Positions 31,101-64,000 of a DNA stretch of 64,000 nucleotides are shown here, piece by piece. The stretch is taken from NCBI RefSeq assembly GCF_044704955.1, contig NC_091991.1:13950001-14014000 (forward strand), given 5' to 3'. The position numbers were made by a program, and so were the translations under genes. Within the stretch, counting starts at the first letter, position 1. Each line of letters opens with the position of its first letter. The stretch is from Pristiophorus japonicus. Its lineage: Eukaryota. The notes beneath the pieces were generated by a model that was not told the origin of the DNA, did not search any database, and saw nothing but the letters and a program-made list of their open reading frames with translations.

Positions 31101-31582
31101 GCTCTTGGTGTGGCGATGGAAGGCGAGGCTGTGTTAAAAGCAAATTCCCAAACTACGTATCCATTGCCAGATGCTGATGGCAGTTGCAAAGCTAAATGTT
31201 AAAGGATAGAGCGTGCTAGCTGGAGCATGTGGAGGCGACTCGGAAAGACTCCAAGTTTTAGTCCAAGCAGCATTAATTGTGCTGTTTAAAGAGGAATCAT
31301 AGTCACTGAGGCTTTTGGGGCAAGGTTTTCTCCTGTACAGTTAGAAACTGGGGAGGCAGAGAGAGGGTGGGGGACAGGCGAGTAGGACGGGGGGGAGGGT
31401 GAGGGCATGGGGGAGGCAGGGAGAGGGCAGGGTGGAGGCGAGTAGAATTAGGGGAGGCGGGGAGACACGGAGAGCTGGCGGAGGCGAGTAGAGCAAGGAG
31501 ACTGGAAGAGCGGGGGGAAGGCGAGTTGAACGAGGGGAAGCGGGGAGAGGGGATGCAGGGGGAGGCACAGCTCCTCTGATCT

Positions 31583-31653
<71 letters not shown>

Positions 31654-37600: not shown

Positions 37601-40600
37601 GCTTCCCAAATCCCCTTATCGCTCAAGAAACTGTCTATTTCTGTCTTAAATTTATTCAATGTCCCAGCTTCCACAGCTCTCCGAGGCAGCAAATTCCACA
37701 GATTTACAACCCTTTAAGAGAAGAAATTTCTCCTCATCTCTGTTTTAAATGGGTGGCCCCCTATTCTAAGATCTAGTTCTAGTCTCCCCCACCAGTGGAA
37801 ACACCCTCTCTGCATCCAGGCTGTCAAGCCCCCTCATAATCTTATACGTTTCGATAAGATCACCTCTCATTCATTCTTCTGAACTCCAATGAGTAGAGGC
37901 CCAACCTACTCAACCTTTCCTCATAAGTCAACCCCCTCATCCCCGGAATCAACCTAGTGAACCTTCTCTGAACTGCCTCCACAGCAAGTATATCCTTTCG
38001 TAAATATGGAAACCAAAACTGCACACAGTATTCCGGGTGTGGCTCACCAATACCTTGTATAGCTGTAGCAAAACTTCCCTGCTTTTATACTCCATCCCCT
38101 TTGCGATAAAGGCCAAGATACCATTGGCCTTCCTATTACTTGCAGTACCTGCATACTATCCTTTTGTGTTTCATGTACAAGTACCCCCAGGTCCCGCTGT
38201 ACTGCAGCACTTTGTCGTCTTTCTCCATTTAAATAATAACTTGCTCTGATTTTTTTCTGCCCAAGTGCATAACCTCACACTTTCCAACATTATACTCCAT
38301 CTGCCAAATTTTTGCCCATTCACTTAGCCTGTCTATGTCCTTTTGCAGATTTTTTTGTGTCCTCCTCACAAATTGCTTTTTCTCCCATCTTTGAATCGTC
38401 AGCAAACTTAGCTACGTTACACTCAGTCATTTTTTCGAAGCCGTTAATATAGATTGTAACTAGTTGGGGTCCCAGCACTGATCCATGCGGCACCCCACTA
38501 GTTACTGGTTGCCAACCAGAGAATGAACCATTTATCCCGACTCTGTTTTCTGTTAGTTAACCAATCCTCTATCCGTGCTCATATATTACCCCAAACCCTG
38601 TGAACATTTATCTTGTGCAGTAACCTTTTATGTGGCATCTTGTCAAATGCCTCTGGAAGTCCAAATACACCACATCCACTGGTCCCCCTTTATCCACCCT
38701 GTTCGTTACATCCTCAAAGAACTCTAGCAAATTTGTCAAACATGACTTCCCCTTCATAAATCCATGCTGACTCTGCCTGACTGAATTTTGCTTATCCAAA
38801 CGTCCTGCTACTGCTTCTTTAATAATAGACTCCAACATTTTCCCAACCACAGATGTTAGACTAACTGGTCTATAGTTTCCTCTTTTTGTCTGCCTCCTTT
38901 TTTGAATAGGGGTGTTACATTTGCAGTTTTCCAATCTGCTGGGACCTCCCCAGAATCCAGGGAATTTTTGTAAATTACATTCAATGCTTTCACAATCCCT
39001 GCCGCTACTTCTCAAGACCCTAGGATGCAAGCCATCAGGTCCAGGGGATTTATCTGTCTTTAGTCCCATTATCTTACTGAGTACCACCTCCTTAGTGATT
39101 GTGATTGTGTTAAGTTCCTTCCCCCCCATAGCCCCTTGACTATCCACTGTTGGAATATTGTTAGTGTCCTCTACCGTAAAGACTGATGCAAAATATTTTT
39201 TCAGAGTTTCTGCCATCTCCATGATCCACTTTACTAGTTCCCCGGTCTCGTCCTCTAAGGGACAAACATTTACTTTAGCCATTCTTTTCTTTTTTATATA
39301 CCTATAGAAACTCTTGCAATCTGCTTTTATATTTTGTGCTAGTTTACTTTCATAGTCTATCTTCCCTTTCTTAATCATTTTTTTAGTCGTGCTTTGCTTG
39401 CTTTTAAAAGTTTCCCAGTCTTCTGTCCTCCCAGTAGTTTTGGCCACTTTGTATGCCCTTGTTTTTAATTGGATACTGTCCTTTACTTCAGTTAGCCACG
39501 GATGGCTATTTTTTCTCTTACACCCTTTCCTCCTCACTGGAATATATTTTTCTTGAGAGTTGTGAAATATCTCCTTAAATGTACACCACTTTCATCAACT
39601 GTCCTACACTTTTATCTATTTTCCCAGTCCACTTTACCCAACTCTGCCCTCATACCTTCATAGTCTCCTTTATTTAAGCTTAGTATGCTGGTTAGAGATC
39701 CAACTTTCTCACCCTCCATCTCAACTTGAAATTCCATCATGCTATGATCACTCATTCCGAGGGGATCCTTTAATAGGAGATTGTTTATTAATCCTGTCTC
39801 ATTACACAGGACCAGATCTAAGAGAGCCTGCCCACTGGTTGGTTCCATTACATACTGCTCAAGAAACCCATCCCCTATGCACTCTATGAACTCCTCCTCA
39901 AGGCTACCCTGACCAATTTGATTTGTCCAATCAATATGGAGGTTAAAATCACCCATGATTATTGCTGTTCCCTTTTTACAAGCCCCCACTATTTCCTGGC
40001 TTATGCTCCGACCATTAAATGCCGGCCTTGCCAGCAATGCCCACATCCCATGAATGAATAATTTAAAAAGTGCGCCATCTTTGGAAGTCTGAATCATCCT
40101 ATATACCAACACAATTCTATACAATTATAGAATTTACATCACGGATACAGGCCATTCAGCCCAACAGGTCCATGTCAGTGTTTATGCTCCACACAAGCTT
40201 CCTCCCACCCCTAGTCATCTAACCCTGTCAGCAAACATATCCTTCTATTTCTTTCTCCATCATTTATTTATCCAGCTTCTCCTTAAATGCATCTCTGCTT
40301 TTCACCTCAACCACACCCTGTGGTAGCGAGTTCCAGATTCTCACCACTCTAGATAAAGATGTTTCTCCTGGATTCCCTATTGGATTTATTAGTGACTATC
40401 TTATATTTATGGCCCCTAGTTCTAGTCTTCCCCACAAATGGATGCATCTTCTCTACGCCTATCCTATCGAACCCCTTCATAATTTTAAAGACTTCTAGCA
40501 GGTTACCCTTCCGTCTTCTCTTTTCTAGAGAAAGGAGTCCCAGCCTATTTGGCCTTTACTGATAGTTATAACCTCTCAAATCTGGTAAAGTCCAACAATG

Positions 40601-43600
40601 TGAGTAATTCACAAATCTGCAGTTAGACATAAACCTTCCAAGGAATGAGAAATCTTGTGAGCAATAAATTCATTTCTATCACTTTCCAAATCTGACTGTC
40701 ACTGTAGGGAGAAATCGACAGGAGTCAAATGGTGAGAGTTTGTGGCAATTGGTGGGAGACAGAATCTTAGAATCTTACAGGTCTGAACGAGGCCATTCGG
40801 CCCGTCGTGCCTGTGCCGGCTGTTTGACCGAGTGACCTGATTCATCCCAGAGATATATTGGAGATTGTATGGGAAAGACATTAGTAAAGAAAAAATGCTA
40901 AATACTGGATGGGATAAGAATTGATAAAGAGGAGGTACTAGAAAGGTTGGCTGTACTTAAAGTAGATAAGTCACCAGGACCAGATGGGATGCAGCCTCGG
41001 ATGCTGAGGGAGGTTAAGGAGGAAATTGCGGAGGTGCTGGCCATAATCTTCCAATCCTCCTTAGATACAGTTTAACCTTGGTCATGGGGAAGCTTTTCGA
41101 AACTGTAATCAGGGAAAAAAATTAACAGTCACTTGGATAAGGGTGGATTAATTAAGGAAAGCCAGCACGGATTTGTTAAAAGCAAATTGTGTTTAACCAA
41201 CTTGATCGAGTTTTTTGATGAGGCAACAGATGGTTGGTGAGGGCAAAGTGGTTGATGTGGTGTACATGGGACTTCCAAAAGACGTTCGACAAAATGCCAC
41301 ATAATAGGCCAGCCAGCAAAGCTGAAGCCCATGGAATAAAAGGGACAGTGGCAGCATGGATACAAAATTGGCTAAATGACAGGAAAACCGAGTAGTGGTG
41401 AACGGTTGTTTATAGGACTGGAGGAAGGTATACAGTGGTGTTCCCCAGGGATCAGTACCAGGACCACTGCTTTTCTTGAAATATATTAATGACTTGAATG
41501 TTGGTGTACAGGGCACAATTTCAAAATTTGCAGATGAGACAAAACTTGGAAGTATAGTGAACAGTGAGGAGGATAATGGTAAACTTCAAAAATACATAGA
41601 CAGGCTGGTGAAATGGGTGGACACGTGGAAGATGAAATTTAACGCAGAGAAGTGTGAAGTGATACATTTTGGTAGAAAGAATGACGAGAGGAAATATAAA
41701 CTAAAGGATACAATACTAAAGGGGGTGAATGAAGAGAGAGGGACACTTGCGGAGGAGCAGCAAGAGATCGTGGCGGAGGTGTGGCGAATGTCTTTGTGGT
41801 GGAGGAGCGGCGAAAGCTCGTGGTGGCAGTGCGGCAAATGTTTGTGGCAGAGGAGTGGCGAGAGATCGTGGCGGAGGAACGGTGAGGGATTGTGGTGGAG
41901 GTACGGTGAATGTTTGTGGCGGAGGAGAGGCAAATGAGGGTACGGGGCCCAGAAGATCCAAGGGCCCAGGGACAGCCCACACTGCGATATGTGTGTGCTC
42001 TAGGTCCATGCAGCAGAACAGGTCTCCAGTCGTCCTGGTTAATCCTTGCTATTGGATAAAGGCCTAGCTCTGTCGAGCCCATGTGGTGGCTGATGTGCAG
42101 CGGTCACCACACGTTAAAAAAATCCACCCACAGACATCTTCTGTCCCTTCAATTGGAGTTCAGGACTGGATATCGGGTCCTTCATTGAAACATCTGTGAA
42201 CTCATGTGGAAGCAAGTCATCCTCGTTCGAGGGACTGCCGATGTCCTAATAAATCTTTTTTGCAACTTTTCCAATGCCTGTCTGTCCTTTCTGTAATATG
42301 GAGACCAGAATTGCACACAGTGCTCCAAGCGTGGTCTAAAGGTTCTATACAAGGTTAACAAACACCCCTGCTTTTCAATTCTATCCCTTTAGAAATGAAC
42401 CCCAGTGCTTTGTTTGCACTTTTTATGCCTTTGTTGACCTGTTTTACTACTTTGTGTATCTGTACCTCTGGATCCCCTTTCTGTATCCCTAGATCTCTTT
42501 ATTCTTTCCCTAGATCCCTTAAGAGACTGAGTCCAGCTTTCCTATAAATTAGCTGCTGTGCAAGCTTGAAATTTTGCCTCCATGCCAGCGCGTACAGTAA
42601 TCTAATGTGGATCGCAGTGAGGTGCATATTCTAATCGGAGAGCATGAAAGAATGTTGGCAAGTAAAATCAGGGAAAACACACAAAGGTGTTTTATAAATA
42701 CATTAAGAGCAAGAGGATAACTAGCGAATTAGTGGGGCCTATTAGAGACCACAGAGGAAATCTGTGTGTGGAGGCAGAAGATGTGGGTATGATTCTTAAT
42801 GAATACTTTGCATCTGTTTTCACAAAAGAGAGAGGCGATGCAGACTTTGCAATGAGGGAGGAGGAGTGTGAAATATTAGATGCGATAAACATAGTGAGAG
42901 AGGAAGTATTAAGGGGCTTAGCAGCTTTAAAACTGGTTAAATCCCCAGGCCTGGATGAAATGTATCCCAGGCTGTTAAGAGAAGCAAAGGAGGAAATAGC
43001 AGGGGCTCTGACTATCATTTTCCAGTCCTCGCTGGCTACAGGTGTGGTGCCAGAGGACTGGAGGACTGCTAATGTTGTACCTTTGTTTAAAAAGGGAGAA
43101 AGGGATAGACCGAATAATTACAGGCCAGTCAGCCTAACCTCAGTGTGGGAAAAGTATTGGAAAAAATCCTGAGAGACAGGATAAATCTTCATTTGGAAAG
43201 ACAATGATTAATCAGGGACAGTCACCATCGATTTGTTATGGGAAGGTCATGTCTGACTAATTTGATTGAATTTTTCGAGGAGGTAACCAGGAGGGTCGAT
43301 GAGGGCAGTGCATTTGATGTAGTGTATATGGATTTTAGCAAAGCTTTTGATAAGGTCCCACATGGCAGACTGGTCACGCAAGTAAAAGCCCATGGGATCC
43401 AGGGCAAAGTGGCAAGTTGGATCCAAAATTGGCTTGGAGGCAGGAAGCAAAGGGTAATGGTTGGGATGTTTTTGTGACTGGAAGGCTGTATCCAGTGGGG
43501 TTTCGCAGGGCTCAGTGCTGGGTCCCTTGCTTTCTGTGGTATATATTTTCATCGCCTCCAGGCTAGATCCAAGACCGTCCCATTCTCTGTCATCGAAATA

Positions 43601-46600
43601 CAATACATGGATGACATTTGCGTCTGCGCGCATTCAGAGGCTGAACTCCAAGCCATCGTCAACATCTTCAACTAGGCGTACGAAAGCATGGGCCTTACAC
43701 TAAACATCCGTAAGGCAAAGGTCCTGCACCAACCTGACCCCGCCCTATAGCACTGCCCCCGCCCCCCCCCCGGTCATCAAAATCCACGGCTCAGCCTCGG
43801 ACCACGTGGACCACTTTCCATACCTCGGGAGCCTACTATCGGCAGGGACAGTCATCGATGATGAGGTCCAACACCTTCTCCAGTGCATCAGCGCAGCCTT
43901 CGGTCGCCTGAGGAAGAGAGTGTTTGAGGATCAGGCCCTCAAATCTGGCACCAAGCTTATGGTCTACAGGGCTGTAGTGATACCCGTCCTCCTGTAAGGC
44001 TCAGAGATGTGGACCATATACAGCAGACACCTCAAATCGCTGGAGAAATATCACCAACGATGTCTCCGCAAGATCCTGCAAATCCCCTGGGAGGTTAGAT
44101 ACACCAATGTCAGTGTTCTCGATCAGGCCAGCATTGAAGCACTGACCGCACTCGACCAGCTCCGTTAGGCGGACTACACTGTCCGCATGCCGGACACAAG
44201 ACTCCCAAAGCAGCTCTACTCGGAACTCCTACATGGCAAGCGAGCCCCAAGTGGGCAGAGGAAACGTTTCAAGGACACCTTCAAAGCCTCTTTGATAAAG
44301 TGCAACGTCCCCACCGACACTTGGCCAAAGACCACCCTAAGTGGAGGAAGAGCATCCGGGAGGGCGCTGAGCACCTCGAGTCTCGTCACGAGAGCATGCA
44401 GAAAACAAGCGCAGGCAGCAGAAGGAGCAAACGGCAAACCAGTCCCACCCACCCTTTCCTTCAACGACTGTCTGTCCCACCTGTGATAGAGACTATAATT
44501 CCTGTATTGGGCTGTACAGTCACCTGAGAACTCATTTTGAGTGGAAGCAAGTCTTCCTCGATTTTGAGGGACTGCCTATGATGATGATGGACTTGAATGT
44601 TGGGGGTTAAGAAGTTTGCAGATGACACTAAAATAGGCTGTGTGGTTGATAATGCAGAAGAAGTGTAAACCACAAGGTGATAGGAAGGGACGATATGTAT
44701 GAATATAAAGAGGCTGCAGGAGGGGTCAAAACTAAAAATCATGGTTTAAAAACTAGTATTAAAACACTCTACCTAAACGCAAGCAGCATTCGAAATAAAG
44801 TCAATGAGTTGACGGCACAAATCATTACAAATGGGTATGATTTGGTGGTCATTACAGAAACGTGGTTGCAGGGGGGCCAAGACTGGGGATTAAACATACA
44901 GGGTTATCTGACAATTCGGAAAGATAGACAAGAAGGGAAAGGAGGTGGGGTCGCTCTGTTAATAAAGGATGATATCAGGGCAATTGTGAGAGACGAAATG
45001 TTATGAACAAAAAATCTTATGAACAAAATGTTGAATCATTGTGGATGGAGATTAGAGATAGTAAGGGGAAAAAGTCACTGGTGGGCGTAGTTTATAGGCC
45101 CCCCAAATAATAACTTCACGGTGGAGCGGGCAATAATCAAGGGAATAATGGAGGCATATGAAAAAGGAACGGCAGTAATCAAGGGGGATTTTAATCTACA
45201 TATCGATTGGTCAAATCAAATCGCACGGGGTAGCCTGGAGGAGGAATTCATAGAATGCATACGGGATTGTTTCTGAGAACAGTATGTTACAGAACCTACA
45301 AGGGAGCAAGCTACCTTAGATCTGGTCCTGTGCAATGAGACAGGAATAATAAACGATCTCCTTGTAAAAAATCCTCTCGGAATGAGTGATCACAGTATGG
45401 TTGAATTTGTAATACAGATTGAGGGTGAGGAAGTTGTGTCAGAAACGAGCGTACTATGCTTAAACAAAGGGGACTACAGTGGGATGAGGGCAGAGTTGGC
45501 TAAAGTAGACTGGAAGCACAGACTAAACAGTGGCACAATTGAGGAACAGTGGAGGACTTTTAAGGAGCTCCTTCATTGTGCTCAACAAAAATATATTCCA
45601 GTAAAAAAGAAGGGCGGTAAGAGAAGGGATAACCAGCAGTGGATAACCAAGGAAATAAAGGAGAGTATCAAATTAAAAACCAATGCGTATAAGGTGGCCA
45701 AGGTTAGTGGGAAACTAGAAGATTGGGAAAATTTTAAACGACAGCAAAGAATGACTAAGAAAGCAATAAAGAAAGGAAAGATAGATTACGAAAGTAAAGT
45801 TGCGCAAAACATAAAAACAGATAGTAAAAGCTTTTACCGATATATAAAACGGAAAAGAGTGACTAAAGTAAACGTTGGTCCCTTAGAAAATGAGAAGGGG
45901 GATTTAATAATGGGAAATGTGGAAATGGCTGAGACCTTAAACAATTATTTTGCTTCGGTCTTAACAGTGGAAGACACAAAAACCATGCCAAAAATTGCTG
46001 GTCACGGGAATGTGGGAAGGGAGGACCTTGAGATAATCACTATCACTAGGGGGGTAGTGCTGGACAGGCTAATGGGAATCAAGATAGACAAGTCCCCTGG
46101 TCCGGATGAAATGCATCCCAGGGTATTAAAAGAGATGGCGGAAGTTATAGCAGATGCATTCGAGATAATCTTACCAAAATTCTTTGGACTCTGGGGAGGT
46201 ACCAGCGGATTGGAAAGCAGCTAATGTAACGCCTCTGTTTAAAAAAGGGGGCAGATAACATCTGTAATGGGAAAAATGCTTGAAGCTATCATTAAGGAAG
46301 AAATAGCGGGACATCTAGATAGGAATAGTGCAATCAAGCAGACGCAGCATGGATTCATGAAGGGGAAATCATGTTTAACTAATTTACTGGAATTCTTTGA
46401 GGATATAACGAGCATGGTGGATAGAGGTGTACCGATGGATGTGGTGTATTTAGATTTCCAAAAGGCATTCGATAAGGTGCCACACAAAAGGTTACTGCAG
46501 AAGATAAAGGTACGCGGAGTCAGAGGAAATGTATTAGCATGGATAGAGAATTGGCTGGCTAACAGAAAGCAGAGAGTCGTGATAAATGGGTCCTTTTCGG

Positions 46601-49600
46601 GTTGGAAATCGGTGGTTAGTGGTGTACCACAAGGATCGGTGCTGGGACCACAACTGTTTACAATATACATAGATGGCCTGGAAGAGGGGACAGAGTGTAG
46701 TGTAACAAAATTTGCAGATGACACAAAGATTAGTGGGAAAGCGGGTTGTGTAGAGGACACAGAGGCTGCAAAGAGATTTCGATAAGTTAAGCGAATGGGC
46801 TAAGGTTTGGCAGATGGAATACAATGTCGGAAAATGTGAGGTCATCCATCTTGAAAAAAAAAACAGTAAAAGGGAATATTATTTGAATGGGGAGAAATTA
46901 CAACATGCTGCGGTGCAGAGGGATTTGGGGGTCCTTGTGCATGAATCCCAAAAAGTTAGTTTGCAGGTGCAGCAGGTAATCAGGAAGGCGAATGGAATGT
47001 TGGCCTTCATTGCGAGAGGGATGGAGTACAAAAGCAGGGAGGTCCTACTGCAACTGTACAGGGTATTGGTGAGGCCGCACCTGGAGTACTGCGTGCAGTT
47101 TTGGTCACCTTACTTAAGGAAGGATATACTGGCTTTGGAGGGGGTACAGAGACGATTCACTAGGATGATTCCGGAGATGAGAGGGTTATCTTATGATAAT
47201 AGATTGAGTAGACTGGGTCTTTACTCGTTGGAGTTCAGAAGGATGAGGGGTGATCTTATAGAAACATTTAAAATAATGAAAGGGATAGACAAGATAGAGG
47301 CAGAGAGGTTGTTTCCACTGGTTGGGGAGACTAGAACTAGGGGGCACAGCCTCAAAATACGGGGGAGCCAATTTAAAACCGAGTTGAGAAAGAATTTCTT
47401 CTCCCAGAGGGTTGTGAATCTGTGGAATTCTCTGCCCAAGGAAGCAGTTGAGGCTAGCTCATTGAATGTATTCAAGTCACAGATAGATTTTTAACCAATA
47501 AGGGAATTAAGGGTTACGGAGAGCGGACGGGTAAGTGGAGCTGAGTCCACGGCCAGATCAGCCATGATCTTGTTGAATGGTGGAGCAGGCTCGAGGGGCT
47601 AGATGGCCTACTCCTGTTCCTAATTCTTATGTTCTTATGTAAGAAAGCTGCGGTTTGCAGGAAGATATCTATGTACTGGTCAGTGAGCGGAACAGTGGCA
47701 AATGGAATTCAATCCAGATAACTGAGAAAATGCATTTGGGGAGGTCTAACCAGGCAAGGGAATACACATTCAGTTGAACGACACTAAAAAGGAACAAAGG
47801 GGACTGTAGGTCCACAGATCCCTGAAGGTAGCAGCCCAGGTAGCTCAGGTGGTTAAGAAGCATATGGAATACTTGCCTTTATTAGTCTAAACATAGAATA
47901 CAAGAGCAAGGAGATTATGCTTGAACTGTATAAAACACTGGTTAGGCTGCAGCTGGAGTACTGTGTGCAGTTCTGGTTACTACATTACAGGAAAGATGTG
48001 ATTGCACTGGAAAGGATGCAGAGGAGATTTACAAGAATGTTGCCTGTACTGGAGAATTTTGGCTGAGGAAAGATTGTAGATGCTGGGTCTGTTTTCTTTG
48101 GAACAGAGGAGGCTGAGGGGGGAGACCTGATTGAGGTGTATAAAATTATGAGGGGCCTGGATAGAGTGGATAGGGAGGGCCTGTTTCCCTTGGCAGAAGG
48201 GTCAAAACCAGAGGACATAGATTTAAAGTAATTGGGGGGAGGTTTACAGGAGATTTGAGGGGATATGTCTTCACCCAGAGGGTGGTGGGGATCTGGAACT
48301 CAGTGGCTTGAAAGGGTGGCAGAGGCAGAAACCCTCACCATATTTAAAAGGTACTTGGATATGCACTTGAAGTGCCGTAACTTACAGGGCTACAGACCAA
48401 GATCTGGAAAGTGGGATTAGGCTGGATAGCTCTTGGTCGGCCGGCGTGGACACAATGGGCCGAAATGGCCTCCTTCTGTGCTGTAAATTTCTATGATTCT
48501 ATGATATCGCAGTGTGTGTGCGTGCTATAATCTGATGCAGATCGCAATGTCCGTGTGTGTGCAGCAATCTGATGCAGGTTTATTTCAGGGGCCCGAGGTT
48601 TGCCTCAGCTCCTCCGCTGCTGAAGCCCTCATCCATGCCTTTTGTTACCTCCAGACTTGACTATTCCAGCGCACTTCTGGCTGGCCTCCCACATTCTACT
48701 CAAACTAGTGGTGATCCACAACTCGGCTGCCCATATCCTAAGTCCCGATCACCCATCACCTCTGGGCTCGCTGATCTATATTGGCTTCCGGTTAAGCAAC
48801 GCCTCGATTTCAAAATTCTCATTCTTATTTTCAAATTCCTCCATTTCCTCCTTGCCCCTCCCTATCTCTGTAATCTCCTCCAGCCTTATAACCCTCCGAG
48901 ATGTCTGCGCTCCTCTAATTCTGCCCTCTTGAGCATCCCTGATTATAATCGCTCCACCATTGGTGGCCGTGCCTTCAGCTGCCTGGGCCCCAAGCTCTGG
49001 AACTCCCTGCCTAAACCTCTCCGTCTCTCTATCACTCTTTTCTCCTTCAAGACTCTCCTTAAAACCTAGCTCTTTGACCAAGCCTGCCCTAATTTCTACT
49101 TGTGCAGCTCGATGTCAATTTTTTTATATCGTAATACCCCTGTGAAGTGCCTTGGGATGTTTCACTACTAAAGGCGCTATATAAATACAAGTTGTTGTCG
49201 CTTGTGCATTGCTGTGAATCTTTAGCTCACTCACTCTTTTCCTTTCAGGTGCAGACTCTCCGCTGGCATCCGTTTGAAGCACAGACTCTTCTCTCTGGAT
49301 CTTTTGACAAGTGAGATACGATTCTAGGCATTTGTCTCCATTTTGTAAGTTATCCCCTCCCCTCTTGGAGCGTTGCTATCTTTGTCCTAACAGGCCCACC
49401 AGCTCTTCATATTTACAATTGCCAGCCTCTTGTTCAACTCTCTTCATGGCTTCGCCCCCCTCCCCCCCCATCTCTATAACCCCCTCCAGCCCTACACCAC
49501 TCCCTATCTCTAACCTCCTCCAACCCTACACCCTTCCCTAGCTCCGTAACCTCCTCCAGCCCCACAACCCTCCCTATCTCTAACCTACTCCAGCCTCTAC

Positions 49601-52600
49601 ACCTCTCCCTATCTCTGTAACCTCCTCCAGCCCCGCACCCCTCCCTATCTCTAACCTACTCCAGCCTCTACGCCCCTCCCTATCTCTGTAACCTCCTCCA
49701 GCCCCTACACCCCTCCCTATCTCTGTAACCTCCTCAAGCCCCACACCCCTCCCTATCTCTTCATTCCTCCCACTCTGGCCTCGTATGCATCTCACATTCC
49801 CTTTGTCCCTTTGGTGGCCGTGCCTTCGGTCAGCTGGGCCCTAAGTTCTGGAATTCCCTCCCTAAACCCCTCCACTTCCATCCGCTTCTTCCAAGCCAAG
49901 ATTTTTGGTCACCCCTGCTAATATCTCCATGTGTGACTCGGTCAGTGTTTCGCTCCTGTGAAGCACCTTGGGGCGTTTTCCTAAGTTAAAGAATCCATAT
50001 CAATGCAAGTTGTTGTTAAACAGATTGTGCCGTGTTCAGGACAGTTTAAAGACACAGTGTAATATGACACTGTGCAACAGTAGCTGACACCCTCCATTAC
50101 CAAATGAAGCAAAATCCCAGGGTTCATTGAAAGGGTTACAATATTTATTACATTGCAACAGTGACTACACTTCAAAAGTGCTTCATTGGTTGTAAAGCCA
50201 TTTTGGGACTTCCTGAGGTCATAAAAGGTGCTATATAAATGCAAATCTTTATTACTCTCTCTAGCCTCCTCATGCCTCATCCAGTCTTATGCCAATATTA
50301 CTCTTTAATCATCTGCTACGGGGCACATTGCTGCAGCCTCCTGGTTACTGGCCCTCCCCCTCACCCACAGAGAAGTGTATGGTGTGGGTGAGACCTGCAT
50401 CTTGCTGTGTGTGGGATCACTTGTGTCCTTTCACACTGGTGCCCCGAATGGTCTTGCTGCCAGTTTGGGACTGAAGCTACGATCAAAAGCTTCCTTCAAA
50501 CTTTCCTGCCGTCGGTTTGTCCGGTGTTGACTGCAGCGGTTTATGTTCGTTCACCTTGGTTATCTACAGGTCAGTCATTCTGTACGACTGCCGGAGTCCG
50601 AAGGAGAACCATCGCAGCTGGAGGTTCAGTGGGGAAGTCGAGCGAGTGACGTGGAATCATTTTTCACCGTGTAACTTCCTGGTGAGCTTTATTCTGGTTG
50701 CCGGGAGGGGATTGTACGGGCAGCGACGTTGCGCAGTTTCTGAAGGAGTGATGTTGTTGAAAGTAAAAAGGATTGTTGGGATTGCACAGCCAAGAGTTTA
50801 TCGTTTTATATGTGTGGGACCAAGTTTGGGAGTGAATGCCAGTCGTAATAATGAAAGAATATTCATCATTAGTTATCGTTCACACTTCACGGCTTGGCTC
50901 GAAGTTAGTGTGTGTCTTGCTTTTCCAGGCCAGCACGGAGGATGGGTTTGTGTATTGTATGGATGCTCGGTCGGACAAACCACTTTTCACACTCAAAGCT
51001 CACGACGGCGAAGTAACGGGTAAGAAAGGCTTCATCAGCGGTCTGTGAGCTGTATCACAACTTTTAAACTGCACAGCAAGTTTCTCGTGCCTACTGATTC
51101 CCGTTTCAAAGCACAGCGTGACAGTGAAAGTTGCCCTCGCCCGACTTTCATCTTCACATCGCTCCTTGGACAAATATTTTGGGCGGAGATATTTTTTTAA
51201 TGATCTTCCGGAAACACAAACCTTTTATCTTTTTGGGTGATCGTGGTCAGTAACAGTGGATTCATGAGGGCCAGGTTCAGCAAACGCCTGTATTTAGCAA
51301 ATGTAATCTCACTGAAGATTAGAGGAAGAACAGTCCATTCATTATTCAGATTTTATAAAGAATCGAGCCTTGCATTTATCTAGTGCGGTCTCACATTTTA
51401 CAAAGACCCCACACAACCTCACGTGCAGTGAATGCTTAAAATCATACCACACAGGAGGAGGCCATTTGGCTCTTTGAAAGAGCTATCCAATTAGTCCCAC
51501 TCCCCCATAGCCACCAAATGTTTCCTCTTTCAAGCAGCATATTCCAGATCCCAACAACTCACTGCGGAAATGTATTCTCCTCATCTCCCCTCCGGTTCTT
51601 TTGCCAATTTTCTTACATCCGTTATGGATACTGCTGCCACTGGAAACAGTTTCTCCGTATTTACTCTATGAAAACCCTTCATGGTTTTGAACGTTCTATC
51701 AAACCTCCCTTTAAACGAAATTGCTCCAAGGCGAACAACTTTGAAGTGAAATGGAGTCACTGTTGTGCAGCTAAATCTGGTCGCGAATTGTAGCCCATCA
51801 ATCCAAGCAATGCACAATGATCTGGTGTTGGTCAAGGGAGGTCCGTTAAGACACTGGGTGGTCTCCCCCTCCTGCTCCTGTGCGTTCTCACACCTCCACC
51901 TGAGACTCAGACAGGCACACGGGGGCCTCTGCTTGGTTCTGCATCGCATCTGAAGGTCGGCATTTGTGACTGCAACAGTCCCTCAGTACTGCCCCTCCGA
52001 CAGTGCAGCACGCCCTCAGTGCTGCCCCTCCGATAGTGCAACGCTCTCTCAGTACTGTCCCTCCGACAGTGCAGCACTTCCTCAGTACTGCCCCTCCGAC
52101 TGTGCGGCTCTCCCTCAGTACTGCCCTTCCGACAGTGCAACAATCCCTTAGTAGTGTCCTCCCGACAGTGCAACACTCCCTCAGTACTACCTCTCCGACA
52201 GTGCAACACTCCCTCAGTACTGCCCTTCCGACAGTGCATCGCTCCCTCAGTACTGCCCCTCCGACAGTGCAACACTCCCTCAGTACTGCCCCTCCAATAG
52301 TGCAGCACTCCCTCAGTACTGCCCCTGTGGCAGTGCAGCACTCCCTCAGTACTGCCCCTCGGACAGTGCAGCGTCCCTCAGTACTGCCCCTCGGACAGTG
52401 CAGCACTCCCTCAGTATTGTACTGTGATGTCAGCCCAAGCCCTGGGCTCCCATTCTGTTATACAGATGTAAATGGTTCAGAGTTGGTGCTACTCGCCCCG
52501 AAATGGTCAAATGGAGATTTTGTGACTTAGCTCATCACCATTATTGCTTCCCGGCACAGATTTTCCCGAGTGCAGGGAGCACACTGGCGATGGGAATTTC

Positions 52601-55600
52601 CCCGCGGTTAAAGCCTCTAAATCAATTTGGTAAAACATGTATTTGATTTTTTTTTTCCTTAATTAGAAATTCCTCCCCTTTCTATATATTTCTGTTATTG
52701 CTTTACAATTGTGTTTCATTTTCCTCTGGAGCAAAGGCAGGTAAATGGGCTTAAGATGCAGATCAGCCATGATCTGATTGAATGACAGAACATGCTGGAG
52801 GGGCTGAATGCCTCCTCCTGTTCCTGGGTATTCCATTTCCCTCTGTTATTCTATGTCATTCCTCAATTACCGGTTATGTGAAAGCAGAGTTTGATGTGCT
52901 TAAACCATGAGCTGGAACTAACATGCTTTCTTTCAGGTTTGGAACTCAGCAGCCAAATCAAAGGCTGCCTGGTGACCTCATCTTCCGATAAATACGTGAA
53001 GATTTGGGATATTTGGGGGAACAAGCCTAGCTTGGTACACTCCAGGGATATGAAAATGGTAAGTGACGGAAACACTGAGAAATGGCAGTGAAGATAAGAA
53101 TCAATCGGATGTATTACTGGTAGTTGAGGTGCTGGGTGTGTCATTATTGTGTCAGCACGATATCCCATTACACTGGTCAGTGTGACATACTGCGGCTGCA
53201 CATTTAAGGTGATTGGCAGAAGGACCAACGGCAACGTGAGGGAAAACCTTTTTACGCAGCAAGTAGTCAGAATCTGGAAAGCACTGCCTGAAAGGATGGT
53301 GGAGGCAGACTCCATCGCAGCTTTCAAAAGGGAATTGGATAAGTACCTGAAGGAAAAAGATTTGCAGGGCTACGGGGAAAGGGCGGGGGAGTGGGACTAG
53401 CTGTGAGGTTCTCTTGCAGAGAGCCGGCACAGACTCGATGCGTGGAATTGCCTCCTTCTGTGCTGTAACCAGTCTATGATTCTATGATACTAGTGTGGCT
53501 GTTTGTCATTCCCAGTACAGTAAGCTCCCACTCTCTGCTCTTGGTGCGGGTTGTGAAGAAGGCTGAAACATTATTAACATTGCTTTTGCACAGGTTCATG
53601 GGGGCTTTCTGCTGGGGTGGGTGGAAGTGCAGAGTGAATGGTGAATTTGCTTTGTATGAATTGGAGCTGCAATTCCAGCCCCCGTGACCTTGCCCCATGT
53701 CTGTTTGCAGGGTGTTGTGTTCTGTGCCGTGTGTTGCCCAGACTCGCCGTTTCTCTATGCTTTTGGAGGACAGAAGGGAGGTTTGCGCACGTGGGACATC
53801 AGCAGTGTGTCTGCAGGTAATCACTCACACCGAGGCCCTCGGGGCCCCTCAATATTCGCAGCCCAATCTCCTAAAGTCAGAACGTTTAGTGCAGAATATT
53901 CTTCTTCAGTTATTTGACAATAGGTTCGAAGATGATTTTCTGTAGTTAGGAGAGTCAGTGACGGTGGGCCATTCATTGAAATTATCACCAAGGGAGTGAG
54001 GTTGGGGGAAAGTTCTTTACACAGAGGGTTTGTTGGCGTCTGGAATGTTTTGCCACAGGGAGCGGTGAGGCAGAAACCACTGTATCATTGAAGGGAAATT
54101 GGATAAATATTCGAATTAGAGGAAAATACAGGGCTGTTTGTGGGGAGAGAGCGGGCCTGTGGGATTAGTTTGGGATTGTTACAGGGCTATGGGGAGACAG
54201 TGGGGCAGTGAAATCAGTTTGGGATTGATGCAGGGCTATGGGGAGAAAGCGGGGCTGTGGGATTGATACAGGGCTGTGGGGAGAGAGCAGGGCAGTGGGA
54301 TTGATACAGGACTGTGGGGAGAGAGTGGGGCAGTGGGATTAGTGTGGGATTGATACAGGGCTGTGGGGAGAGAGCGGGGCAGTGGGATTAGTGTGGGATT
54401 GATACAGGACTGTGGGGAGAGAGCGGGGCAGTGGGATTAGTGTGGGATTAATACAGGGCTGTGGGGAGAGAGCGGGGCAGTGGGATTAGTGTGGGATTAA
54501 TACAGGGCTGTGGGGAGAGAGCGGGGCAGTGGGATTAGTGTGGGATTGATACAGGGTGATGGGGAGAGCGGGGCAGTGGGATTGATACAGGGCTATGGGA
54601 GAGCAGTGGGGTCAGTTTTAGTTTGTTCTTGCAGAGCCAGCACAAACACGATGGGCCGAATGGCCGCCTCTGCTGTAAACTTTGTTTCTATATATCACAT
54701 TTTTAAGGAAACTGCATCAATAAAGTAGCATTACTTAGAGAGTGTAATAATGCTTTTGATGGTAACAGATGAGGGAGGCTGCAACAGATCGGGTAGGGTG
54801 TTATCGTGTTAAATAAGGAGGAACTGTTTCCAGAAAAGTCAATAACCGGACGACACAGATTTAAGGTGGTTGGCAAAAGGATCAGAGGTAACACAAGGAA
54901 ACTTTTTTACACGGTGAGTTGTTGTGATCTGCAACGCGCTGCCTGAAAGGGTGGTGGGAGCAGATTCAATCGTAGCTTTCAAAGGGGAATTGGATAAATA
55001 CTGAAAGAGAAAAATGTTACAGGGCTGTGGGTAAAGAGCAGGGGCGTGGGAGTAATTGGATAGGTCTTTCAAAGAGTCAGCACAGGTCCGATGGGCCGAA
55101 TGGCCTCCTGTGACATTCTGTGGTATTGAAGGAAGTGCTTGTTCAGTTTCAGGGTTATTCAAAAACTTTTAGAATTCGTTGTGAAATTTCAGAGTAAGAT
55201 AAAGTGTGAAGCTTTAACTTCACAGTTGAACTTTTTTGAGAACTTTAGCATTTCAATTGCAACATGTAACAGTTGTGATTTTATTCAGACGGAACTCTTG
55301 GCCCCACCCAGATTCTAGATGCATCGAACATTAAAAATCTCGACAGCATCTGATGCTGCACACAAGTTCAGTGCTGAAGGGTTGGTTGTTAATTTGTGTT
55401 GGAAGATAGTTGTGTTTATTAAATTGACACAAAGGCCATTGTCCTGTCCATTTCCAAAAGACCTTCAATAAGGTCAAAGCATGCGGAGTCGGGACAAGTA
55501 TGGATATCAGAATGGATAGCTATTCACAGTGGCAGAAGGTGGGAAGTGGTGACTACAAGGATCAGTGCTGGGTCTACTGTTGTTCATAATTGATATTAAT

Positions 55601-59218: not shown

Positions 59219-59233
59219 ATGGGACATTTCAAG
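59219..59233 (+). CDS. TMEM86-like candidate exon 1, coding part (MGHFK)
   Basis: Strong Kozak atcATGG followed by AAG|gtgact, a phase-0 donor that fits the phase-0 acceptor at 60751; MGHFK-LVFPF aligns with TMEM86A GPK-LVPFF. Confidence 0.55.
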
Positions 59234-59291
59234 GTGACTATTGGTCTGTGGCCGGGACAGCGATTGGTCTCCACGCTCAGAAACATCGCCG

Positions 59292-59548
59292 CTCCCAGCA
59301 GGAACGGGGTGGTTATTGCCAGCAGGAATGGGGTGTTTGTTCCCAGCAGGAACGGGGTGGTTATTCCCAACAGGAATGGGGTGTTTGTTCCCAGCAGGAA
59401 CGGGGTGGTTATTCCCAACAGGAATGGGGTGGTTATTCCCAGCAGGAACGGGGTGGTTATTCCCAGCAGGAACGGGTGGTTAGTCCCACCAGGAATGGGG
59501 TGTTTGTTCCCAGCAGGAACGGGGTGTTTGCTCACAGCAGGAATGGGA
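59292..59548 (+). repeat. 24-bp minisatellite in TMEM86-like intron 1
   Basis: About 10 copies of cccagcaggaa(c/t)ggggtg(g/t)tt(a/g)tt. Confidence 0.93.
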
Positions 59549-59999
59549 TATTTTTTCCGATCATTTACTGAAAATGGGTAATTATATTCCCGCTAACTGA
59601 TCCAGGCAAGGAATTGAGAAAATACTCAGCTACCTATGAGTGTGAAGCAAGGGTTTGGGTCACGGATTAGGGTTAGGGTCAGGGGTTAGAGTTGGGGTCA
59701 GGTTTAAGTTGGGGTCAGGGGTCAGTGACCCGACTGCAGGGGGTATTCTCAATGACAGTTTTACCCCGAGAAATGCCTGTTTGCGAAGGTGGCGATGCCA
59801 GTGAGCGCTCCAAGCGGCGATGCCGGAACTCACACTGCCCTGGGTTGCTCACTATACCGGAGATTATGCAGCAATTCACTGAGCTCAGTTTGACACCGAA
59901 CAAAGGACTTTGGGGAGAGAATTCCCTCCGTCCCTTTCCGTGCTCAAAATAGGATTCAAGAAGTTAATTTTCCCTTTGGGACCCAGTTTTAAGATTTGA

Positions 60000-60135
60000 T
60001 GAAGATCTGACGAAGGATCATCGACCCGAATCGTTAACTCTGCTTCCTCTCCACAGATGCTGCCTGACCTGCTGAGATTTCCAGCATTTTCTGTTTTATT
60101 ACAGATTTCAGCATCCGCAGTATTTTGCTTTTGTC
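60000..60135 (+). mobile_element. Penelope-like element terminal fragment with a degenerate hammerhead-ribozyme motif
   Basis: ctgacgaaggatcatcgacccgaatcgttaactct...cagatgctgcctgacctgctgagatttccagcattttctgtt resembles the PLE-associated repeat end common in fish and shark genomes (recognised from memory). Confidence 0.55.
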
Positions 60136-60394
60136 CGAAGATTTGATGTTCTCCAGAGTCTCAAATCCCCAAACCCCAACCCCCTAAAACCCAAACCCCA
60201 ATACCTCATAACCCAAAGCCCCAAAATTTCAAATCCCAAAACCCCCAAACCCTTAGCCTCTCTGCTCCAGTGGGAGAGTCTCAGTATTTCCAGTCTCTCC
60301 TCATTAACTATAATTCCCCATCCTGGTGAATCCACAGTCCGCTCTCTGTGGCTTTAATGTCCTTTCTATAATGGGAACGAGAACTGTGCACAGA

Positions 60395-60655
60395 GTCACT
60401 GAGAGACCCCCCACACACGGGGAGCCACAGACCCCCACACATGGGGAGTCACTGGACCCCTACACACGGAGAGTCACAGAACCCCACACACGGGGAGTCA
60501 CTGGGACCCCCACACACAGGGAGCCACTGGGACCCCCACATACAGGGAGTCACTGGGACCCCCACACATGGGGAGTCACTGGGACCCCCACACACATGGG
60601 GAGTCACTGAGACCCCCCACACACGGGGAGTCACAGACCCCCACACATGGGGAGT
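60395..60655 (+). repeat. ~24-26-bp minisatellite
   Basis: About 10 copies of cacac(g/a)gggagtcactgggacccc. Confidence 0.9.
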
Positions 60656-60750
60656 AGTCATTGTGCCCTGAGATCACCCAGTAGATGGTAGTTTGATGTC
60701 AGTGTTTGGATTGTCGAGCTTTGTACTGACGATTTGCTCTTTGACTACAG

Positions 60751-60940
60751 TTGGTGTTCCCCTTTACTCTGGCCCTAATTGTGAGATACGAGTATGGAGT
60801 ATCCAAATACCCCCCAGGCATGTTGGCGTTGTTCCTCAACTGTTTGCCAATCCTCATCCTTATCGGCGCACTCCTGGTGACCAAGCAAAAAACTGTGTTC
60901 TCTCGTAGAGTGATGGCGGGACTGAGCTTTGCCACTGCAG
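60751..60940 (+). CDS. TMEM86/YhhN (lysoplasmalogenase-family) membrane protein, exon 2 (LVFPFTLALIV...LNCLPILILIG...RRVMAGLSFATA)
   Basis: ctacag| ... G|gtaagc; aligns to TMEM86A LVPFF...IKCLPI...RIFVGLVFSAVG. Confidence 0.85.
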
Positions 60941-61434
60941 GTAAGCAACCAGAAACGGTGACATTTCACTTTAACTCAGAGCCCGCAAAATGACTGTCCA
61001 ATACTCCAGGTGTCAGGGTGCCCAGAACTGTGCCCAGTACTCCAGGTGTGAGAGTCATTATCCGCTCCTGGCCTTTGTAACTCTCTCGCTCTACATCCCA
61101 ATATCTGGTTTGCTTTCCGGCCACATTCTGTGCTGTTGGTTTGAGTGAGTCAACCATCAACATCCTCAGATCCCCTCCTGTCCTGGAGTCTAGGTCCATA
61201 GGGGCAGAACTTCCACAGGGTTGATCGAATCTTACAGCCCATCCATCGTGCCTGTGCCGGCTCTCTGAAAGAGCGATCCCATCAATTCTCCTGCTTTTTT
61301 GCCACATCTTTGGCAGAAGATCAGTGGAAACAGCAGGTGAGTCTGTCCCTGTCTCCGGGATTTACTGATCCTCTGACAAAGTTACAGCTGTTAGGAACTG
61401 CAAAGGCAGTTCCAGGCCAGATACTTTATATTCT

Positions 61435-62195
61435 CACTGCCATATTCCTTGCTGCCATGCTCCACCTCACAGTCAACAAGCTCCCCGCTGGAGTGGAACT
61501 AAACTACAGAACCAGTGGGAACCTGTTCAACCTTCGCCGTCTCCAGGCCAGGTCCAAGACCACCCCAACCTCTATTGTCGAGCTACAGTACGTGGACAAT
61601 GTCCTGGCTGGACTATGTACAGTAGACACCTCAAGTCACTGGAGAAATACCACCAACGATCCTACAAATCCCCTGGGAGGACAGATGCACCAACATTCGC
61701 GTCCTTGACTAGGCCACAGCATTGAAGCACTGACCACACTTGATCAGCTCCGCTGGGCAGGCCACATTGTTCGCATGCCTGACACAAGATTCCCAAAGCA
61801 AGCACTCTACTCGGAACTCCTTCACGGCAAGCGAGCCGAAGGTGAGCAGAGGAAACGTTTCAAGGACACTGTCAAAGCCTCCCTGATAAAGTGCAACATC
61901 CCCACTGACACCTGGGTGTCCCTGGCCAAAGACCGCCCTAAGTGGAGGAAGTGCATCCATGAGGGCGCTGAGCACCTCGAGTCTCGTCGCCGAGAGCATG
62001 CAGAAATCAAGCGCAGGCAGCGGAAAGAGCGTGCGGCAAATCTGTCCCACCCACCCTTTCCCTTAACGACTATCTGTCCCACCTGTGACAGAGACTGTGG
62101 CTCTCGTATTGGACTGTTCAGTCATCTAAGAACTCATTTTAAGGGTGGAAGCAAGTCTTCCTCGATTCTGAGGGACTGCCTATGATGATGATGAT
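61435..62195 (+). mobile_element. RTE LINE 3' fragment with an internal deletion
   Basis: [27 protein letters not shown]-terminal CPTC..C...GLFSH zinc knuckle, (gat)n tail. Confidence 0.9.
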
Positions 62196-62379
62196 TCTCA
62201 CTGTTTATTTCTCAGTCTCGTTCAATGGCCAATTCACACAGACCCTTTGTCATTGGTTTGTCAGCTCCCTATTGTTAAAATGATAAATCCCATTGTCGTT
62301 CTGATTTTAATGTAAAATCCTTGAAAAGTCTGAGTTAAAACATAAATCGATAGTTTGAGATTCACTCAGAACAATGATA

Positions 62380-63482
62380 GCTCCGAGCAGAAGGTTGTGG
62401 GTTAAAATCCCTCTCCAGAGACTTGAGCCAGAAGCCAAGTTGACACTCTCAGTGCCAGATGGGCAGTACTGAGGGAGCACCACACTGTCGGAGGGGCAGT
62501 ACTGAGGGAGCACTGCACTGTTGGAGGGGCAGTACTGAGGGAGCGCTGCACTTTTGGAGGGGCAGTACTGCGGGAGTGCTGCATTGTCGGAGGGGCAGTA
62601 CTGAGGGAGAGCTACACTGTCGGAGGTACAGATCTGAGGGAGAGCTGCACTGTAGGAGGGGCAGTACTGAGGGAGCACCGCCCTGTCAGAGAATCAGTAC
62701 TGAGGGAGCATTGCACTCTCGGAGGGGCAGTACTGAGAGAGCGCCGCACTGAAAGGGGGCAGTACTGAGAGAGCGCTGCACTGTCGGAGGGGCAGTACTG
62801 AGGGAGCACCGCCCTGTCAGAGGGGCAGTACTGAGAGAGCACCGCACTGTCGGAGGGGCAGTACTGAGGGAGCACCGCCCTGTCAGAGGGGCAGTACTGA
62901 GAGAGCACCGCACTGTCGGAGGGGCAGTACTGAGGGAGCACCGCCCTGTCAGAGGGGCAGTACTGAGAGAGCACCGCACTGTCGGAGGTGCAGTACTGAG
63001 GGAGCACCGCCCTGTCAGAGGGGCAGTACTGAGAGAGCACCGCACTGTCGGAGGGGCAGTACTGAGGGAGCGTTGCACTGTCGGAGGGCAGTACGGTGGG
63101 AGTGCCTTCCTATGGATGAGACGTTATCTGAGTCTGCTCTCTCAGGTGAAGGTAAAAGATCCCGTGGCACTATTTCAAAGAAGAGCAGGGGAGTTTTCCC
63201 GGTATCCTGAGGCCAATATTTATCCCTCAACCAACATCACTAAACCAGTTAATCTGGTCTTTAAGAACATAAGAAATCGGAGCAGGAGTAGGCAATACGG
63301 CTCTTTGAGCCTGGTCCGCCATTCAATAAGATCACGGCTGATCTAGTATTATCACATTGCTATTTGTGGGAGCTTGCTGTGCACAAATTGGCTGCTGTGT
63401 GTCCTGCATTACAACAGTGATTACATTTCAAAAGTAGCTAATTGGCTGTAAAACGCTTTAGGCCATCCTGAGGTTGTGAACA
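62380..63482 (+). mobile_element. Near full-length DeuSINE: tRNA-like head, 33-bp minisatellite expansion (62460-63090), Deu core, antisense CR1-tail insert (~63262-63344) and 3' tail
   Basis: Head gaaggttgtgggttaaaatccc; about 19 repeat units; core ggatgagacgtt...aaagatcccgtggcactatttcaaagaagagcagggg; tail gtgggagcttgctgtgcacaaattggc. Confidence 0.85.
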
Positions 63483-63577
63483 GCTGTACCTCAGGGTCAA
63501 TCCCAACAGTGAGTGAATAAAGTCTGATTGTAACTCTGCCACACGATGAGTTTTAACTCTTCACTTTTGCCTTGCAG

Positions 63578-63999
63578 GGGAACTGTTCTATCTCTTCGAA
63601 GACCGCTACTTAATTCCGAGTTTCAGCTGTTTTGCGATCGCGTACCTTCTGTACAGTGCAGCGTTTGGGCTGAAGAGGGACAATCTGTACCTGGGTGGGA
63701 TCATGTTCCTCGTGATGTTGTCCGTGTATTACTTCGCGTCTCCGGGAGTTCACGGTCTGCCCCAGGCTGTGTCCTATGCGTACACTGTGCCACTCGTGCT
63801 GATGATCTGGAGAGCAGTGGCTTGGTGTCGGCGGAACCACCGCAACAGCTTGCTTGGTCTGTTCGGGACTATCATACTTGCCATGTCCGACACTGTCCTG
63901 TCAGATCGCTTATTTTCATTCCCGGTCCCTCACCATGCGTACCTTGTGAGTTCCTCCTACTATGCAGGACAGCTCTTCATCGCCCTGTCTGTCACATAG
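63578..63999 (+). CDS. TMEM86/YhhN-like terminal exon (ELFYLFEDRY...MIWRAV...AMSDTV...FPVPH...SYYAGQLFIALSVT*); full protein ~208 aa
   Basis: cttttgccttgcag|, phase 1, open to TAG at 63997-63999; YhhN motifs WRA, SD, FPVP and YY.(A/G)Q..(I/V)ALS; several hydrophobic TM segments. Confidence 0.9.
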
Positions 64000-64000
64000 G

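Follow-up and report, generated by a model that had tools for sequence, protein, structure and literature searches.

The closest described relatives of the gene analysed here are TMEM86A and TMEM86B, lysoplasmalogenases of the YhhN family. In the available parts of the papers cited here and below, five core polar residues (Lys, Asp, His, Asp and Tyr) are described as clustering inside the YhhN helix bundle, and the catalytic mechanism is stated to be unknown (PMC9052158). The substitutions D82A and D190A lower TMEM86A activity (PMC9283435). Eight TMEM86A residues (K43, G81, D82, H104, G182, S189, D190 and Y213) and their TMEM86B equivalents have been mutated to Ala (PMC11994398). Mutation of G81 had no effect. 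Activity stayed above 10% in the mutants of H104 and G182 in TMEM86A and of H108 and S182 in TMEM86B, the His mutants being reduced, and dropped below 10% in all the remaining ones, among them K43, D82, S189, D190 and Y213 in TMEM86A and the TMEM86B counterparts of K43, D82, D190 and Y213. The gene described here lies at positions 59,219–63,999, on the forward strand, of a 64,000-nt stretch of the genome of the sawshark Pristiophorus japonicus (assembly GCF_044704955.1, contig NC_091991.1, positions 13,950,001–14,014,000; hereafter the window). It encodes an intact YhhN protein with two of the five core residues, belongs to a shark and ray group whose members keep different pairs of them, and is probably a pseudoenzyme.

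Active-site residues of the window protein

The alignment comprised 188 rows: five genes from the sawshark genome, 26 named proteins, and other search matches 150–420 amino acids long. Residues are numbered as in human TMEM86A, following PMC11994398, and a teleost TMEM86A (P0192) carries all eight tested residues at those numbers. At K43/G81/D82/H104/G182/S189/D190/Y213 the window protein has the residues N, G, E, Y, G, S, D and Y. The core five (Lys43, Asp82, His104, Asp190 and Tyr213) are thus Asn, Glu, Tyr, Asp and Tyr, with two of five retained; Gly182 and Ser189 are kept as Gly165 and Ser172. The key positions in the window are:

60838..60840, + strand: Asn35, at the position of TMEM86A Lys43; Arg in the 8 other shark and ray rows
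63580..63582, + strand: Glu70, at the position of TMEM86A Asp82; Asp in the 8 other shark and ray rows
63643..63645, + strand: Tyr91, at the position of TMEM86A His104; Tyr in 9 of 9 shark and ray rows
63886..63891, + strand: Ser172-Asp173, at the positions of TMEM86A Ser189-Asp190, retained; at the Asp position, five carpet sharks have Glu and two skates have Asn
63958..63972, + strand: Tyr196-Tyr197-x-x-Gln200, at the positions of TMEM86A Tyr213 to Gln217; retained in 8 of 8 full-length shark and ray rows

Outside the shark and ray clade, position 190 is Asp in all 179 YhhN rows. Position 82 in the same rows is Asp in 173, with 4 gaps, 2 other residues and no Glu; position 43 is Lys in 158, with 14 gaps, 3 Arg, 4 other residues and no Asn; and position 104 is His in 144 and Gln in 32, with 3 others. 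The only Tyr at position 104 occurs in a repeat-laden, misaligned row. Since Glu82 and Asn43 are found in 0 of 179 rows and Tyr104 in that single misaligned one, the window substitutions are not a matter of chance. An alignment artefact was also rejected, because there are no gaps in or beside the key residue columns and the numbering-matched TMEM86A fixes the register. The Gln104 rows (P0011, P0022, P0191, P0198 and others) form a natural subgroup of their own that includes several named invertebrate proteins.

An earlier interpretation of this DNA, made without database searches (the sequence-only reading), had reported the K>N, D>E and H>Y changes together with retained SD and YY.xQ motifs, and had held D82 and D190 to be required in TMEM86A. 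All of the quoted motifs lie where it placed them, Glu and Tyr occupy the positions of Asp82 and His104 in a register fixed by P0192, and the Ala mutants with less than 10% activity agree with the stated requirement, as far as the available text of PMC11994398 goes.

Orthologs in sharks and rays

The matches listed include orthologs from five carpet sharks (whale shark, zebra shark, epaulette shark and two bamboo sharks), from two skates and, represented by a partial isoform, from an electric ray. With the window protein the set contains nine shark and ray rows, eight of them full-length. A first homolog search with exon 3 matched only the window protein itself.

The change at position 104 is fixed, with Tyr in all nine rows, and in the eight full-length rows it is accompanied by a fixed F186>L. 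Position 43 is Arg in eight rows and Asn in one, that of Pristiophorus japonicus; Lys is found in none. Position 82 is Asp in eight rows and Glu only in Pristiophorus japonicus. Among the full-length rows, position 190 is Asp in the sawshark, Glu in the five carpet sharks and Asn in the two skates. Positions 43, 82, 104 and 190 consequently read N-E-Y-D in the sawshark, R-D-Y-E in the carpet sharks and R-D-Y-N in the skates. The idea that D>E, H>Y and K>N are common to the orthologs therefore fails for two of the three changes: position 43 is Arg elsewhere, D82>E is private to the sawshark, and it is D190 that the others have lost. Every full-length row retains two of the five core residues, and these are not the same two in each. 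Because the retained core residues differ among the rows, there is no common replacement catalytic set beyond Ser189, Tyr213 and Gln217.

A third vertebrate lineage

Maximum-likelihood analysis of 52 rows joins the eight full-length shark and ray rows (support 100/99) with five lamprey and hagfish rows (99/96). A separate TMEM86A/TMEM86B clade (98/90) holds the C14 gene, the C19 gene and both C22 genes of this genome, with the window gene outside it. A FastTree of 187 rows, from which one repeat-laden row was left out, gave the identical 14-member group with no added member (support 94). Two further signs are independent of branch length. Arg17, Gly21 and Asp103 are common to the shark and ray rows and all five cyclostome rows and occur in 0–3% of 173 outside rows. 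Intron 2 interrupts the Gly81 codon; the corresponding position in the four other TMEM86 genes of the genome is near Gly96, about 14–15 codons later. The same intron-2 position is implied in skate (P0173 and P0174) and lamprey (P0213 and P0152) by read-through or alternative-start proteins, not by DNA.

The lamprey and hagfish proteins (P0003, P0153, P0155, P0009 and P0190; named "TMEM86B-like / TMEM86A-like") form the sister group, share 30–31% identity with the window protein and, in lamprey, are implied to have the identical intron-2 position. In contrast to the shark and ray proteins, they retain all eight tested residues. On tree placement and intron position, the window gene is a third vertebrate TMEM86 lineage that is orthologous to neither TMEM86A nor TMEM86B, which upholds the sequence-only reading on this point. 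Lamprey and hagfish members indicate that the lineage is older than the cartilaginous fishes.

On C15, two myogenic bHLH genes in tandem lie 1.3 Mb from the window gene, and on C14 one such gene lies 6.4 Mb from TMEM86A; from their sequences we take the pair to be Myf6/Myf5 and the C14 gene to be MyoD. C19 carries a TEA-domain gene at a distance of 2.3 Mb from its B-like gene. These shared markers fit a duplicated chromosome segment, as expected of a whole-genome-duplication ohnolog, and they are few. A search for SPT2 synteny, which had no positive control, found nothing, and a search for SAPS in strict mode matched C14 and C19 only. The free tree separates the vertebrate copies, and an approximately unbiased (AU) test does not reject their joining in one clade (p 0.265). 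The Gly81 intron position, unlike that of the paralogs, would fit an older duplicate too.

No bony-vertebrate member of the clade is present among the 187 tree rows, and no bony-vertebrate or chimaera member was found among the matches listed (150 of 520) or by a profile search that was insensitive, missing members of its own alignment, and so cannot show absence. The lineage was probably lost from these groups.

Gene model and read support

The gene consists of three coding exons, all junctions being GT-AG:

59219..59233, + strand: coding part of exon 1 (start codon, 5 codons, phase-0 GT donor), inferred from ortholog starts, with an upstream in-frame stop
59234..60750, + strand: intron 1, GT-AG, carrying simple tandem repeats
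60751..60940, + strand: exon 2, 190 nt, predicted helices 1–3, ending one base into the codon equivalent to Gly81
60820..60822, + strand: internal ATG at which the 180-amino-acid UniRef form P0001 begins, leaving out the first predicted helix
60941..63577, + strand: intron 2, GT-AG, phase 1, splitting the Gly81 codon, with LINE-like and tandem repeats
63578..63999, + strand: exon 3, 422 nt including the TAG stop, predicted helices 3–8

The joined exons amount to 627 nt and encode exactly 208 amino acids with a single terminal stop, in line with the spliced frame of about 208 residues, free of stops and frameshifts, that had been proposed. Stops, frameshifts and losses of splice sites, the marks of a pseudogene, were found neither in the window gene nor in the seven other full-length rows. 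The placement of exon 1 follows from homology, as the public run described below gives it no cover and the orthologs begin likewise; its five-codon stretch agrees in length and pattern with the starts of P0002, P0168 and P0020.

The protein belongs to the YhhN family, as had also been anticipated. Pfam YhhN (PF07947) is matched with E 2.1e-18 by exon 3 alone and with E 3.8e-25 by P0001, which scores 89.1 bits against a cut-off of 25.6 over profile positions 2–182 of 182. P0001 is automatically named "lysoplasmalogenase TMEM86A-like" from Pristiophorus japonicus. It lacks 28 N-terminal residues and with them the first helix of the 208-residue model, which corresponds to residues 4–20 in the model of a full-length ortholog. 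A YhhN form without helix 1 is inactive (PMC9052158, available text), so the 208-residue model is preferable to P0001 for assays. Eight helices are predicted for the full-length whale shark ortholog P0002 (pLDDT 91.2); for the 180-residue window form the model shows seven long ones (pLDDT 76.2). Five peaks came out of a hydropathy scan with strict peak spacing, a result that was not used.

Read support comes from one public run (X1), whose kind is unrecorded and which may derive from the same animal as the assembly. Record 2 of X1 spans 60749–60935 and then 63573–63832, and is thus joined across intron 2; record 7 spans 63806–64000; neither has any differing letter. Record 2 uses the modelled intron-2 junction, with a five-base shift compatible with both sides, which argues against an alternative splice that would alter Glu70. 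The key codons on the forward strand are AAC (60838–60840), GAA (63580–63582), TAC (63643–63645) and GAC (63889–63891). Each has been seen twice, since the assembly and the X1 contigs are identical there and carry the altered codons unchanged. As far as one run allows, an assembly error is rejected by the absence of differences over the covered exons and by the recurrence of H104>Y in eight other species. A search of public runs listed no RNA run as a holder of the gene.

Constraint on the shark and ray proteins

Twenty-eight alignment columns reach a conservation of 80% or more across 173 outside rows, 4 of them charged and 24 of other kinds. None of the four charged columns is retained across all eight shark and ray rows (8 of 32 cells), against 16 of the 24 other columns (161 of 192 cells); in cyclostomes, 20 of 20 charged cells are retained. 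A Fisher test on columns gives p 0.024 for charged versus other, the cells not being independent. The branches are long, at 1.08 for the stem and 0.9 for the terminal branch compared with 0.12 for TMEM86A. The reading frames are open in all eight full-length rows, where neutral drift over the sawshark's terminal branch alone, at 0.5–0.9 changes per site, would be expected to introduce 4.6–8.3 stops (probability of none, 0.01–0.0003). Selection has likely preserved the gene for a membrane protein of eight helices with a predicted pocket for lysolipids.

Interpretation and alternatives

The window gene is an intact fold in which catalytic residues are replaced, as in a pseudoenzyme, and its expression is read from one spliced contig of a run of unrecorded kind. 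We consider it probable, judging from sequence comparisons, that the shark and ray protein has lost most of its lysoplasmalogenase activity and retained a non-catalytic role; about half of that probability falls to lysolipid binding as the role. The loss of different aspartates from lineage to lineage, on an eight-helix scaffold that stayed conserved, favours a pseudoenzyme over a new specificity. The suggestion of the sequence-only reading that vinyl-ether hydrolase activity was lost or changed would accordingly hold in its first half, with altered specificity the less favoured one.

The proposed course of events starts from a vertebrate ancestor with a presumably active copy, given that lamprey and hagfish retain all eight residues. 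On the shark and ray stem His104 would have become Tyr and Lys43 Arg, and catalysis was probably lost or much reduced at this stage, hydrolysis being covered by the intact paralogs. By parsimony, the stem state would be R-D-Y-D at positions 43, 82, 104 and 190, and the aspartates would have changed three times independently through later drift: D82>E in the sawshark, D190>E in carpet sharks and D190>N in skates. The helix bundle would remain, as would the pocket residues that carry no charge (Gly81, Tyr150, Trp159, Gly182, Ser189, Tyr213 and Gln217), so that lysolipid might still be taken up, uncleaved, by a protein acting as binder, buffer or sensor. Such a lysolipid-holding role is plausible because the YhhN pocket binds lysophosphatidic acid, a competitive inhibitor, without cleaving it (PMC9052158, available text).

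Several observations weigh against this interpretation. The lineage evolves fast, the sawshark protein being 38–42% identical to the other full-length orthologs as opposed to 62–73% for other TMEM86 ortholog pairs, and some change in the active site is to be expected from the overall rate. The orthologs were drawn from annotated proteins, among which broken copies would be missed. The published mutants in the available part of PMC11994398 are all Ala, and the natural D>E and K>R changes are milder; the sawshark and carpet shark proteins still have two carboxylates; and site 104 tolerates change, as the natural Gln members indicate. Some of these points would suit a protein that is still an enzyme, with a lower rate or an altered substrate (another lysolipid, head group or bond) handled through Ser189, Tyr213, Gln217, Tyr104 and one or two carboxylates. 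The fixation of Tyr104 and Leu186, the conservative nature of the aspartate changes (E and N), and the retention of Ser189 and Tyr213, which TMEM86A needs, in a family where His104 is not essential, all speak for it. New chemistry should, however, have fixed residues of its own, whereas the acidic sites read E/D, D/E and D/N and position 43 is N or R, and D190 is invariant in every row outside the clade. We regard a modified enzyme as unlikely, though it is the likeliest of the alternatives.

A redundant duplicate under relaxed selection, slowly decaying and without current function, would account for the long branches, and four intact paralogs in the genome and the lack of a bony-vertebrate member among the tree rows fit it as well. 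It is distinctly improbable in view of the open frames and the stops expected under neutrality on the sawshark branch alone, and of the retained scaffold columns, the 80% identity between the whale shark and bamboo shark orthologs and the spliced contig. Least probable of all, to the point of being hard to credit, is a normal lysoplasmalogenase with mutually compensating substitutions. The YhhN score far above the cut-off and the automatic name point in that direction, and Glu substitutes for Asp in some enzymes; yet each full-length member has three of the five core residues altered, the otherwise invariant Asp190 is Asn in skates, and the sawshark has no basic residue at position 43.

With the pseudoenzyme reading preferred, a fuller picture can be sketched, tentatively and with more doubt than belief. 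The gene, for which we use "TMEM86C", could be an early-vertebrate duplicate, lost in bony vertebrates, an enzyme in jawless fishes and the first YhhN pseudoenzyme in sharks and rays, where a GPCR-like bundle with its two catalytic aspartates lost independently on three occasions might act as a membrane receptor for lysoplasmalogens or related lysolipids, or as their carrier. No use of this name was found in the literature searched. Pseudoenzymes commonly arise after duplication, which makes the surprise a moderate one.

Other TMEM86 genes, neighbours and repeats

The genome holds at least five YhhN genes: besides the window gene, which is on C15, there is one each on C14 and C19 and a tandem pair on C22. 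The four others have all eight tested residues intact, and together with the teleost TMEM86A they share 26–30% identity with the window protein. They resemble the window gene in that the last two exons encode most of the protein. The two intact C22 genes (C22:43588224-43613591), about 24 kb apart, group with TMEM86A (94/84) and a sawfish protein and represent a further shark and ray expansion of the family in which all eight tested residues are retained. Intron 2 of the first of them contains a 23-codon partial copy of the start of exon 3 (L008:1882-1950).

On the upstream side the following gene adjoins:

4726..53088, + strand: multi-exon WD40 gene; its introns are full of repeats, and it includes a gap of 200 N at 4786–4985

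The adjacency claimed by the sequence-only reading is thus borne out for a WD40 gene, which by similarity we take to be PWP1. A tetraspanin exon (L025:2534-2800, - strand; Pfam E 2.1e-14), presumably TSPAN9/TSPAN4-like, lies about 52 kb downstream of the gene; within the 230 kb examined, no host gene was recognised closer on that side. Intron 2 of the window gene contains, at 61200–63450, LINE-like reverse-transcriptase remnants and a tandem array of about 28 bases, both high-copy in X1. Broken LTR-retrotransposon-like reading frames are found downstream of the gene (L010, L026 and L027); we take them to be gag, protease, RNase H and integrase-like.

Significance and comparison with known systems

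The lineage is apparently undescribed so far: a literature search, outside whose coverage most subscription papers fall, found no description of it or of a YhhN pseudoenzyme, and one supplementary file of PMC13450315 contains no TMEM86 row. Annotation is corrected in two respects, as the genes are labelled "TMEM86A-like lysoplasmalogenase" and the Pristiophorus japonicus entry lacks the first helix. The intact lamprey gene and the N-E-Y-D, R-D-Y-E and R-D-Y-N versions form a natural series for the question of mechanism. If the shark and ray proteins are inactive yet conserved, the YhhN fold has a non-catalytic use, which would matter for the part that lysoplasmalogens and TMEM86A are reported to play in signalling.

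A link to the ether-lipid stores of shark liver, which the sequence-only reading had raised, is weak, because the oil was reported to contain alkyl and not vinyl ethers (PMC9029064), the enzyme that splits alkyl ethers is a different one, a monooxygenase (PMC3137066), and four intact paralogs are present; the two papers are cited for their available text.

Structure searches matched the fold only to generic helical bundles. Matches to GPCR-like and CREST bundles reach Z scores of up to 10.4 with root mean square deviation values of 4.2–4.5 Å over 168–170 aligned residues, which is in the range of any helical bundle. Foldseek gave nothing at E 0.001 or better, a sequence search of the PDB gave only weak serine-incorporator rows (E 0.014) and no solved YhhN structure, and the ESM Atlas at 0.90 gave bacterial YhhN clusters only. 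Kinship of YhhN to the GPCR-like and CREST folds has been called questionable (PMC10041065), and the available text of a CREST review (PMC13562381) does not mention TMEM86. Myomaker, a ceramidase-related membrane protein that has a non-enzymatic role and for which no effect on the expected lipid was detected (PMC13644828, available text), offers an analogy only, since it belongs to the CREST family and the window protein to YhhN.

The closest comparison remains that with TMEM86A and TMEM86B. The window gene is like them in its Pfam family and in Gly81, Gly182, Ser189, Asp190 and Tyr213, and the eight helices predicted for TMEM86A (PMC9283435, available text) match the eight of the ortholog model. 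It differs from both in K43>N, D82>E and H104>Y, in its separate clade, in the intron within the Gly81 codon and in its short C-terminus.

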